A program made the position numbers and the translations under genes. DNA of 64,000 nucleotides, from contig JAKFBU010000041.1 in assembly GCA_036676985.1 (NCBI GenBank), positions 148,167 to 212,166 of the forward strand, read 5' to 3'. The notes beneath the pieces were generated by a model. It was not told where the DNA came from, ran no database searches, and worked only from the letters and a program-made list of their open reading frames with translations. Below are positions 21,092-22,665 of the stretch, piece by piece. Each line of letters begins with the position of its first letter. Positions within the stretch are counted from its first letter, which is position 1. Source of the DNA: Candidatus Sericytochromatia bacterium (GTDB taxonomy: Bacteria; Cyanobacteriota; Sericytochromatia; S15B-MN24; UBA4093).

Positions 21092-21469
21092 TTAGGTGGT
21101 GGCGCCACCACCGGGGCTCTCCCACCAGTAACCCTTTCCTGTTGGAGGCGGTGGGTTCATGCGCTCCCGCAGCATCTCAACCGTCACGGACTGGCCTCGT
21201 AAGAATCGACCAAAGGCGCGGGGGTGAACCTCTGAGAAGCGTCTGTAGATGAACACCGCCAGGTTTTCCGTCTCGTCACGGTTGGGGTCCCACTCGCTCT
21301 CCTCATCCATGATCTGTCGCATAGCCGAAAAGAGCTCGCGATGCTCGGGTTCTTGCAGGATCCTCTTCGCCCATGGCCTGAAGTAGTAGTTGAAGTCATC
21401 GATGGGTTTCGGGTTGCTCTCGCTGTTCAGCCCGAAGATCTTCCCCAGGAGCGAGTTGTCGTCATCCAC
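21092..21469 (-). CDS. Hypothetical protein
   Basis: 125-aa ORF with AGAGAGGGG RBS, directly downstream of HTH gene. Confidence 0.65.
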   Translation of the reverse strand: MDDDNSLLGKIFGLNSESNPKPIDDFNYYFRPWAKRILQEPEHRELFSAMRQIMDEESEWDPNRDETENLAVFIYRRFSEVHPRAFGRFLRGQSVTVEMLRERMNPPPPTGKGYWWESPGGGATT

Positions 21470-21493
21470 GGGGGCCCCCTCTCTACAGGTGCA

Positions 21494-22033
21494 TCACGTT
21501 CCGTTGCCGTCCGTTTGCGGCTTCTCGTCGTTCTCCTTCATGGCATCCATGACCGCAGCAACGGCTGCGGCCGTCCCTGCTGCAGCCGTTGCTGCACGTG
21601 CAGCTGCAACAACAGCGCCTCCACCAAGGATGGCGCCTAAGGCTGGAGCGGCCAGAGCGCCAAGCAAACCACCGATAAGACCGTTACCAACAACAGCTCC
21701 CACATGAGGTACCCACCGACGCAACTCCCGCTCCCTCTTCTTCTTCTCGGACGCGTTCTTCTCGAGGAGCTTCTCGTAGAGCTTGTTGATGAAATCGATG
21801 GCATCGGGGTTATTGTTTTGGGCTTGTTCGACGAAGGCGGCAAGCTGGCTGGCCGTTGCTACCAGGGCAGAGCGCTTCTCAAGGCCAGCGAGCTCCTCAT
21901 CACTCTTCTCCTCGAGCCGGACGACGTTGGGCTTCGACGTTCCAAGAAGTTCAGCCATTTCTTCCAGACTAAGCTTCAAGGTGGTGCGAACCGTCCTGAT
22001 GTAGTTCTCCTGCTGATTTTCAGGGTTATTCAT
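21494..22033 (-). CDS. XRE-type HTH protein with C-terminal Gly/Ala-rich hydrophobic (glycine-zipper-like) segment
   Basis: IRTVRTTLKLSLEEMAELLGTSKPNVVRLE; GAVVGNGLIGGLLGALAAPALGAILGGG; GGAGG RBS. Confidence 0.75.
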   Translation of the reverse strand: MNNPENQQENYIRTVRTTLKLSLEEMAELLGTSKPNVVRLEEKSDEELAGLEKRSALVATASQLAAFVEQAQNNNPDAIDFINKLYEKLLEKNASEKKKRERELRRWVPHVGAVVGNGLIGGLLGALAAPALGAILGGGAVVAAARAATAAAGTAAAVAAVMDAMKENDEKPQTDGNGT

Positions 22034-22049
22034 GTTTTCCTCCAAAGTC

Positions 22050-22080
22050 AAAAAGGGCAGAGGCCCGAGAGCCCCCACCC
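22050..22080 (-). terminator. Intrinsic terminator between peptide genes and HTH gene
   Basis: GGGTGGGGGC...GCCTCTGCCC stem with G-U pairs followed by TTTTT on minus strand. Confidence 0.65.
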
Positions 22081-22093
22081 GTAAAGGTTGTAG

Positions 22094-22231
22094 TTACTGT
22101 TTGGCTCCAAACAGCACGTTCAACGTAACGCTCGAGACCATGTGGCCAAGGTTACCCATGTGCTTCTCGCAGTCCTCGCGGGTCATGTTGGTCCGGATGG
22201 CTTCCCGCACCTTGTTCAGAAAATCGCTCAT
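22094..22231 (-). CDS. 45-aa small protein (not in ORF track)
   Basis: MSDFLNKVREAIRTNMTREDCEKHMGNLGHMVSSVTLNVLFGAKQ; AAGGAGGG RBS. Confidence 0.7.
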   Translation of the reverse strand: MSDFLNKVREAIRTNMTREDCEKHMGNLGHMVSSVTLNVLFGAKQ

Positions 22232-22251
22232 TACCTTGCCCTCCTTCAGAC

Positions 22252-22377
22252 TTAGGCCTTAGCCCCGAAAAACGCGGCGACAGTGACGATCACACCAGCG
22301 ACAGCAGCCACCTTCTTGGCTGCGTCACCGGTAACCTTGGCGGCCTTGATGATGATGCGGATCGTGTTGGCGTTCAT
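22252..22377 (-). CDS. 41-aa cationic hydrophobic peptide (not in ORF track)
   Basis: MNANTIRIIIKAAKVTGDAAKKVAAVAGVIVTVAAFFGAKA; AAAGGAG RBS. Confidence 0.75.
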   Translation of the reverse strand: MNANTIRIIIKAAKVTGDAAKKVAAVAGVIVTVAAFFGAKA

Positions 22378-22665
22378 GAGGTGGCTCCTTTACTGACAAA
22401 CCCTCTGGCGTCCGTCGATGACCGAACCATTGCTTGCTGATACATTCATACCACATTTGGACCGAAACTGACCGACAAAATCCGAAAAAGAACAAAGATT
22501 TAATCCTCTACAAACCGTTGATTGAACCTATGTGGGTGCTACTACTTGCCGTTGTTAGCTTATAGCTAGTATGTAATGGACAATACTTGTAAGTTTTGTT
22601 CTCACATGATACCGTGGTATCCACACAGGGACCTGCTTACGCCCAACTCTGGATGTAAGGACTTG

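Follow-up and report, generated by a model that had tools for sequence, protein, structure and literature searches.

Type I toxins such as Hok, TisB and the Fst-like peptides are shorter than 50 residues and combine one hydrophobic helix with a charged end. The membrane-bound regulators ToxR/ToxS, TcpP/TcpH and CadC have winged-helix domains of the OmpR type together with periplasmic sensor domains. Prophages and satellites can carry 'morons', a concept that we take from the excerpted part of PMC3594210, and small membrane or exclusion proteins such as DicB and SieA of phage P22 serve as examples (excerpts of PMC6832061 and PMC10883804). By analogy, the closest known design to the locus described here appears to be the prgQ-IRS1-prgX region of the enterococcal pheromone plasmids, as laid out in the excerpt of PMC7117660. 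Our locus is a cassette of four genes at positions 21092–22377, on the minus strand, of a 64,000-nucleotide (nt) stretch of contig JAKFBU010000041.1 (the window, by which we mean the whole stretch analysed) from a Candidatus Sericytochromatia bacterium, a member of a group with almost no studied mobile genetic elements. The cassette sits in a 13.1-kb integrated element (the island) and encodes two mini-proteins, pep1 and pep2, a helix-turn-helix (HTH) protein of the XRE type with a Gly/Ala-rich hydrophobic tail, and a protein of 125 residues, orf125. Real and well formed, the cassette belongs to no known family, and we tentatively read it as a moron-like accessory operon.

We read the minus strand of window positions 20700–22900 together with the open reading frames (ORFs) listed for it. 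The pep1 gene (22377–22252, 41 residues) is preceded by the Shine-Dalgarno sequence (SD) AAAGGAG at 22391–22385, 7 nt before its ATG. The pep2 gene (22231–22094, 45 residues) begins 20 nt past the pep1 stop codon and has its own SD, AAGGAGGG, at 22246–22239, 8 nt before the ATG. An internal intrinsic terminator (22080–22050, minus strand) separates this pair from the gene of the HTH protein (22033–21494, 179 residues), which truly begins at an ATG (22033) that is preceded at a distance of 5 nt by GGAGG, and not at the GTG of a 194-residue frame. The orf125 gene (21469–21092) starts with GTG 24 nt after the HTH stop codon, and a second terminator, at 21052–21085 and readable on both strands, forms the 3′ end of the cassette. 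On the other side, an AT-richer spacer of 198 nt (22378–22575) lies between pep1 and a plus-strand operon of a 90-residue ORF and a serine recombinase. In all four cassette genes GC is distributed over the codon positions as in coding DNA. The GC content of the cassette, 0.50–0.58, is the lowest in the element, compared with about 0.65 in the island core, and is about 0.50 in window positions 22000–22599. The cassette is a self-contained, antisense, lower-GC, terminator-bounded insert in the island. A preliminary description of this DNA had already placed a minus-strand cassette antisense to the island core, with an internal terminator, an XRE-type HTH protein with a Gly/Ala tail and a 125-residue ORF; each of these parts was found in its place. 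It had also called the module undescribed, in agreement with our finding no family for the peptides or for orf125 in Pfam, PHROGs, PADLOC or NCBIfam.

The two mini-proteins have the marks of genes. GC at third codon positions (GC3) is 0.74 in pep1 and 0.78 in pep2, against 0.45 and 0.33, respectively, at second positions, in DNA with an overall GC of only 0.54–0.58. AGGAG or GGAGG stands 4–12 nt upstream of 3.6% of all ATG triplets in the genome, and pep1, pep2 and the HTH gene all have such a site, which bears out the strong ribosome-binding sites that had been noticed on the two small ORFs. Both peptides are present in a public protein collection as singleton clusters from this same contig, so a gene caller had called both; the label 'unannotated' that they had been given holds for the ORF track behind the preliminary description and not for that collection.

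The shared ending of the two peptides, F-G-A-K followed by one further residue and the stop codon, had likewise been pointed out, and it is not a product of chance. Among the 90,568 stop-to-stop frames of at least 20 residues in the 4.68-Mb genome only two end in this way, and they are the adjacent pep1 and pep2; FGAK itself occurs 28 times in the six frames of the genome. The last 11 residues of the two peptides align without gaps at a score of 28, which was reached in none of 100,000 shuffles. The peptides had been described as otherwise dissimilar, but their likeness extends further: a local alignment runs nearly their whole length (pep1 4–40 against pep2 6–44), with a score of 37 that was reached in none of 5,000 shuffles. 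The shared C-terminal segment of ten residues reads V-T-h-x-x-h-F-G-A-K. For each of its six identical residues (V, T, F, G, A and K; 6/6) pep1 and pep2 use different codons, and every third codon position differs between the two FGAK stretches. Because the shared residues use different codons, it is the protein, and not a DNA or RNA motif, that pep1 and pep2 keep alike. From the codon differences and the near full-length alignment, we therefore conclude that pep1 and pep2 are diverged tandem paralogues under constraint at the protein level, and that they are probably translated.

These data also bear on the alternative that the small ORFs are not genes and that their common ending arose by accident from a DNA or RNA element with near self-complementary FGAK codons, an idea to which we give hardly any credence. 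It draws on a real feature of pep2, whose last six codons make a perfect 8+8 inverted repeat with a 2-nt centre (22097–22114); allowing up to three mismatches, this palindrome has a single match in the window, where 0.10 would be expected. Since pep1 has nothing comparable, the palindrome does not explain the shared ending, and the differing third codon positions mean that amino acids are shared and not DNA. The likeness of the whole peptides, the strong SDs and coding-type GC3 of both ORFs and the two occurrences of the ending genome-wide all speak against this alternative as well.

In their composition the two peptides are not equivalent. Pep1 has a net charge of +5, is amphipathic in its N-terminal stretch and contains one hydrophobic segment at about residues 19–41 (mean Kyte-Doolittle hydropathy over 19 residues of 1.7–2.0 for segments starting at residues 19–23), and it ends in F-G-A-K-A. 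Pep2 has a net charge of +1 and ends in F-G-A-K-Q. That both end in a hydrophobic stretch, as first described, is true of pep1 and only loosely true of pep2, whose tail is moderately hydrophobic. Pep2 had no relative among proteins of 24–79 residues and no usable match in the ESM Atlas, and a search of IMG/VR with a degenerate DNA pattern for V-T-x-x-x-h-F-G-A-K-x-stop gave 0 matches. A shorter pattern of the FGAK ending gave scattered single matches in 401 genomes of the phylum, at about the same rate as a reversed control; two FGAK-type ORF ends within 160 nt of each other were present only in the genome of the window.

The make-up of pep1 recalls a toxin. It would be possible for pep1, perhaps together with pep2, to act as a type I-like toxin or abortive-infection peptide that, once freed from control, depolarises the membrane and kills or arrests an infected cell; this was the idea that the preliminary description favoured. 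Its size, positive charge and single hydrophobic helix are typical of such toxins, and it resides in a mobile element; hotspots in satellites and prophages carry defence systems (excerpt of PMC9122126). We nevertheless regard a toxin as unlikely. There was no match to any toxin or defence model, and in PADLOC-DB v2 pep1, pep2 and orf125 matched 0 families. Strong SDs and a promoter-proximal place suggest constitutive high expression, which is hard to square with a lethal peptide. Neither an antisense RNA nor an antitoxin was identifiable with Rfam, for which a scan of 14000–30000 returned only a chance-level match to CcsR1 (E 0.35) within 21555–21595. Finally, whereas pep1 is a small hydrophobic peptide with one putative membrane helix, as type I toxins are, pep2 is insufficiently hydrophobic to be one.

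The third gene product, which we call the regulator, consists of an HTH domain, probably lambda-repressor-like (XRE), with a helical linker (about residues 10–105), a basic juxtamembrane stretch, a hydrophobic Gly/Ala region at about 108–165 (111–146 by Kyte-Doolittle) with small-xxx-small spacing and a central Pro, and a short acidic tail. It scores 16.7 bits against Pfam HTH_3, below the gathering cut-off of 23. Among the PADLOC models it matches HTH_VI (E 8e-5) and, more weakly, MTase_I and capH, and its N-terminus matches MqsA, HipB and mobile-mystery-protein-A-type (mob_myst_A) models at 1e-3 to 4e-2. The tail (117–172) matches the YcfJ-type NCBIfam model PRK11280, which we take to be a glycine-zipper 2TM family, with 20.4 bits and an E value of 3.6e-4, where the cut-off is 99. 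In the AlphaFold2 model the N-terminal domain has a predicted local distance difference test score (pLDDT) of about 70–80 (62–81 per block of ten residues) and helices at 11–18, 23–30, 34–42, 45–52 and 56–72. Its structural neighbours are mostly of the XRE type, with weak scores (an E value of 0.52 at best in Foldseek and a Z of 5.6 at best in VIA, the wide structure search). The neighbour lists include NatR, Stl, CapH, DdrO, HipB, MqsA, HigA, ImmR, P22 c2, 434 and Aca proteins. Past the HTH domain and linker we found no TPR or other domain except the hydrophobic Gly/Ala region. A complex prediction of the regulator with pep1 (score 0.01, mark 0.32) is evidence neither way.

The presence of Aca proteins among these neighbours raises the possibility of an acr-aca-like anti-defence operon, in which small inhibitors are followed by an HTH autorepressor. 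The order of small ORFs and then an HTH gene in a mobile element would suit such an operon, and Aca2, Aca7, Aca10 and Aca11 appear with Z values of 3.5–3.9. These values are at noise level and common to every XRE protein, however, and there is no sequence match. The Acr proteins known to us are longer and less hydrophobic than pep1 and pep2, and Aca proteins are, as far as is known, soluble. We consider this explanation very unlikely.

The regulator gene is single-copy in its own genome, and in a word-based search of 5.8 billion clusters its product was the sole match. An exhaustive phmmer search of 1.84 billion representatives gave three matches: the protein itself, P0004 and P0005. P0004 is a low-complexity repeat protein and was set aside. 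P0005 (257 residues) is 34% identical over residues 12–130, with E values of 8.3e-4 library-wide in phmmer and 7e-14 in a pairwise BLASTP comparison, and it passes Pfam HTH_3 at 29.6 bits. Its parts follow in the same order as those of the regulator: an HTH domain, a helical linker, an R-W-V juxtamembrane motif and a Gly/Ala hydrophobic region. After the hydrophobic region P0005 adds a C-terminal pair of EF-hands that passes the Pfam threshold. The two sequences point to what may be a small family of XRE regulators that are tethered to the membrane and whose sensor ends can be exchanged. A search of the literature for membrane-anchored regulators of this kind returned no paper that names the Xre family. 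The 'membrane-bound bacteriocin' of pXO1, considered as a parallel, is a different kind of protein (excerpt of PMC4243335). Alignment-based matches to the HTH domain in JGI metagenomes, GTDB genomes and IMG/VR were discarded as generic XRE proteins: at the GTDB and IMG/VR loci the match was confined to the HTH motif, and two JGI loci that we examined were of the HipB/HipA type. As a separate observation, the Ala-rich coding part of the regulator gene contains a 17-nt inverted repeat, 94% complementary, at 21555–21595, which draws short spurious contig matches from unrelated organisms in the four sequencing runs compared.

The last product, orf125, is acidic (net charge −5) and mostly helical, with a conserved, Pro-rich and Trp-containing C-terminal end. 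Its structural model is a helical bundle with a pLDDT of 61.4. It has one homologue, P0003 (119 residues), to which it is 63–64% identical; P0003 and P0005 are both public singletons on short contigs, of 7,214 and 2,770 nt, respectively. The model had no Foldseek match in the PDB or BFVD, and the sequence had none in the PDB and no usable one in the ESM Atlas. Neither JGI metagenomes nor GTDB genomes contained a match to an orf125 alignment, which gave one chance match of 22 residues in IMG/VR. Of 401 genomes of the phylum, five gave a match to orf125; four of these matches (E 0.003–0.009) were judged to be chance, the two examined lying in the region of the gene for ribosomal protein S1. To judge by their S1 genes, the relatives in the phylum are cyanobacteria. 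The wide structure search reached a Z of 4.5 at best, and about 18 of 50 rows were EF-hand proteins, below any trustworthy Z; an origin of orf125 as a split-off EF-hand domain was dropped as unsupported, with an hhalign probability of 0.6% against P0005 and a BLASTP E value of 0.21.

What joins the four genes, or divides them, is written in the DNA between and after them. The internal hairpin (22080–22055) has 11 pairs, seven of them G-C, and a predicted energy of −19.3 kcal/mol, and is followed by UUUUU, the form of an intrinsic terminator; it starts 13 nt past the pep2 stop codon and lies just before the SD of the regulator gene. The end terminator is a perfect 17+17 inverted repeat (−32.4 kcal/mol, z −5.74 against shuffles) that the cassette has in common with the convergent RusA gene, and is strong and bidirectional. 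Directly 5′ of the internal terminator, the pep2 palindrome and its flanking bases form a further RNA hairpin. This palindrome could be a pause site, a binding site or an accident of the near self-complementary FGAK codons; no anti-terminator pairing between the pep2-end hairpin and the terminator was apparent in the RNA fold.

The internal terminator could mean that the cassette consists of two independent units: a two-peptide operon that ends there, and a second pair, the regulator and orf125, that has its own promoter and is a type II toxin-antitoxin-like or regulator-effector pair. Besides the canonical terminator between the pairs, the weak matches and neighbours of the HTH domain, which are largely antitoxins (HipB, MqsA, HigA, NatR), and the usual antitoxin-toxin order of an XRE gene and then a small gene of no known family within 24 nt would agree with such a division. 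So would the fact that orf125 has a homologue, yet the exhaustive search gave no close HTH homologue to adjoin it. Against this, we saw no promoter between the terminator and the HTH start, where only about 16 nt separate the U-tract from the start codon, and orf125 matches no toxin family or fold. We know of no precedent for a membrane-tethered antitoxin. Two independent units are, in our view, distinctly unlikely.

The integrated element that carries the cassette extends from 15277 to 28445 (13.1 kb) and is bounded by a 25-nt direct repeat (15277–15301 and 28421–28445) with 24 of 25 positions identical. The left copy of the repeat holds the stop codon of a gene for an RlmI-like 23S rRNA methyltransferase, so that the insertion is at the 3′ end of that gene; the element does not sit at a tRNA gene, and the window contains none. 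Arm-type repeats of an 11-nt AAAGTAGGAAT-type unit lie near both ends, at 15407–15439 and 28317–28338. The plus strand encodes a tyrosine integrase, a Toprim/DUF7146 primase, a DUF3987 helicase-like protein, a protein of 213 residues and RusA; past the cassette follow the 90-residue ORF, the serine recombinase and six further ORFs. The DUF3987 protein had no relative in 46 other genomes of the class, nor in IMG/VR. GC is 0.55–0.68 in the island, compared with about 0.70 in its flanks. The six plus-strand ORFs of 176, 133, 148, 286, 100 and 251 residues (23927–28066) matched nothing in Pfam, PHROGs, PADLOC or NCBIfam, and the element may be a satellite, an integrative mobilisable element or another type. 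It has the integrase and the primase or replicase expected of a phage satellite, and the family scans recognised no capsid-hijacking gene; the link drawn earlier to satellite cargo hotspots is an analogy. Two other features of the element may be recorded here. The serine recombinase (22866–23600, 244 residues), the second gene of the operon that is divergent from the cassette, has a resolvase domain and a partial 'Recombinase' domain, and the element thus has a short serine recombinase in addition to its tyrosine integrase. At 24417–24716 on the minus strand lies a second antisense ORF of low GC (0.53), which encodes 99 residues with a hydrophobic, Gly-rich C-terminal half and may be another separately acquired insert for a membrane protein.

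The divergent operon suggests a further explanation, in which the cassette is the island's own immunity or switch module. The HTH protein would be the repressor of the element, transcribed away from the operon of the 90-residue ORF and the serine recombinase in the manner of cI and cro, and the peptides would modulate it. In the boldest form of this idea the two peptides are rival signals whose shared C-terminal segment is the active part, as in an enterococcal pheromone and its inhibitor. The divergent layout around the 198-nt AT-richer spacer is what such a switch would call for, and the neighbours of the HTH domain include, with weak scores, the repressors Stl, ImmR, P22 c2 and 434. The design of pCF10 offers a precedent, with a peptide ORF, a read-through terminator and two similar hydrophobic peptides acting on one XRE-type repressor (excerpt of PMC7117660). 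The receptors of the RRNPP type (PrgX, Rgg, AimR) combine an HTH with a TPR-like domain, however, and neither this nor another recognisable peptide-binding domain is present in our HTH protein. The spacer has only short, non-significant direct repeats, and no operator-like inverted repeat was found in 22370–22600. Export or processing genes were not recognised in the island, and membrane tethering is unusual for the repressor of an element. Peptide signalling of the pCF10 kind is, to our knowledge, known from Firmicutes and not from diderm bacteria. We regard a switch module as doubtful. That pep1 and pep2 are rival or cooperating signals whose V-T-h-x-x-h-F-G-A-K segment is sensed in the membrane by the glycine-zipper of the XRE repressor, which would then switch the divergent recombinase or late operon on or off, is a long shot. 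The other known member of the repressor's family, P0005, would in that case be a sensor of calcium by way of its EF-hands.

Our preferred reading, the moron-like accessory operon, is one that we put forward as possible and not as probable: the 13.1-kb element would have acquired the operon separately, and the operon would produce the peptides in abundance, associated with the membrane, and in smaller amounts an XRE autoregulator that is tethered to it. As an antisense insert of lower GC that is bounded by terminators, the cassette fits the definition of a moron, as given in the excerpt of PMC3594210. The spacer at 22378–22575 presumably holds a promoter and operator region, and a promoter there would drive pep1 and pep2, both of which would be strongly translated. 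Pep1 would be a cationic, tail-anchored membrane peptide and pep2 its less hydrophobic cousin, and both would associate with the membrane through the conserved hydrophobic, Lys-capped tail. The moderate terminator after pep2 may let part of the transcripts through, and with partial termination the cell would therefore make much peptide and little regulator and orf125 product. The preliminary description had spoken of abundant peptides and an attenuated regulator, which is a fair reading of the terminator and, like ours, an inferred one. The XRE regulator would be tethered to the inner membrane by its glycine-zipper region, and orf125 would be a small acidic helical protein. At the cytoplasmic membrane the peptides might act as an exclusion- or toxin-like effector or modulate a membrane protein, while the scarce tethered regulator, if it binds DNA, would feed back on the divergent promoter region and so control its own operon. 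Any phenotype of the cassette is likewise conjecture. No part of the cassette matches a known toxin, defence, bacteriocin or signalling family, and nothing shows a toxin, abortive-infection or signalling function; the evidence supports the operon plan, not a function.

Several observations weigh against the moron-like operon. With respect to the membrane, no segment of pep2 reaches the transmembrane threshold by Kyte-Doolittle, so it is not clearly a membrane peptide, and the hydrophobic tail of the regulator is modelled at a pLDDT below 50. With respect to expression, the internal hairpin is unremarkable against shuffles (z −1.37), and we call it a terminator because of its hairpin-plus-U-tract form, not its energy; a simple sigma-70 scan gave no promoter match, and no RNA run contained the stretch. 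The remaining points concern distribution. The HTH protein was not found in the genomes of 60 relatives (the one match in 61 genomes is its own) and has a single true, distant relative, P0005, in the 1.84 billion representatives, and none of 400 other genomes of the phylum gave a credible match to orf125. The phmmer search of those representatives gave no HTH homologue at 50–60% identity; the contig of P0003 therefore probably encodes none beside the orf125 homologue, and the two genes may in some cases occur apart. The cassette is all but restricted to the genome of a single uncultured soil bacterium, and any conservation of the linkage of its four genes can be followed only as far as variant fragments of about 90% identity.

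Those fragments come from another study. We aligned public contigs on window positions 19900–23700, and besides the runs from which the genome probably stems a groundwater metagenome, X4, contained pieces identical to the cassette at 21806–21956 and 22152–22302 together with variants of it. The variant of orf125 (21143–21465) has 20 differences in 323 nt and an in-frame insertion of 3 nt, which adds an Ala between Phe and Gly codons (minus strand), where P0003 has an extra Ala. A variant of pep2 (22132–22248, the 5′ two-thirds of the gene and the SD) has 11 differences in 117 nt and no indel. There are also variants of the 213-residue gene, the 90-residue ORF and the serine recombinase. All of these variant fragments are contigs of 151–416 nt at a depth of 2–4, and no frame-breaking indel is present in the covered parts of the cassette. 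The variants therefore point to a sister element, about 90–94% identical, that carries at least part of the cassette. Elsewhere the cassette was not found: tblastn of pep1, pep2 and orf125 gave no match in phage or plasmid collections, nor did tblastn of the HTH protein in the plasmid collection or blastn of the cassette in the phage collection. In its own genome, tblastn of all four proteins found no paralogue above noise.

The mini-proteins, as tandem paralogues under protein-level constraint, are a solid if small discovery, and the rare family of HTH-glycine-zipper regulators, one member of which has EF-hands, is a minor one. If the moron-like operon is correct, the cassette would represent a new design of accessory operon, in which duplicated mini-proteins with a conserved tail are made in excess over a membrane-tethered XRE regulator, and it would define a small undescribed family of regulators with an HTH domain, a glycine-zipper and an optional EF-hand sensor. 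Were the signal reading true, a mobile element in a diderm relative of the cyanobacteria that does not photosynthesise would have a decision switch based on peptides, with a new class of receptor. The practical weight of these results is limited, and the near-uniqueness of the cassette restricts comparison and general rules.

How, then, does the cassette compare with the systems already described? It resembles type I toxins in the size, the one hydrophobic helix and the charged end of pep1 and in its residence in a mobile element, and differs from them in its strong SDs, its duplicated partner peptide and its downstream HTH gene and in having no family match. Two-peptide and leaderless bacteriocins would be expected to have dedicated exporter and immunity genes next to them; the scans of 19 island proteins recognised neither an ABC transporter nor a peptidase nor a bacteriocin family. 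With ToxR/ToxS, TcpP/TcpH and CadC it would share a cytoplasmic DNA-binding domain joined to a membrane segment and small membrane proteins alongside; unlike them, the regulator has an XRE-type HTH and a glycine-zipper and almost no further domain, and P0005 has EF-hands. Like the glycine-zipper 2TM proteins of the YcfJ/SlyB type, the regulator contains about 50 hydrophobic, Gly/Ala-rich residues in small-xxx-small spacing, with a Pro at the centre, but it lacks a lipoprotein signal peptide, and this region is fused behind a cytoplasmic HTH domain.

The prgQ-IRS1-prgX region of pCF10 and pAD1 comes closer. There too a mobile element carries a peptide ORF and then a read-through terminator, two similar hydrophobic peptides and an XRE-type regulator, and the shared peptide segment has a conserved Thr, as far as the excerpt of PMC7117660 describes them. 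In our cassette, by contrast, the regulator is encoded downstream on the same strand, has no peptide-binding domain but a predicted membrane tether, and belongs to a diderm relative of cyanobacteria. With morons the cassette shares its general plan: it is an independent unit with its own terminators, antisense between core modules, lower in GC, and its proteins are small and partly membrane-directed. It differs from the morons described so far in that its products have no sequence or fold relation to theirs and in the pairing of two mini-proteins, tandem paralogues of each other, with an XRE protein that is presumably tethered to the membrane.

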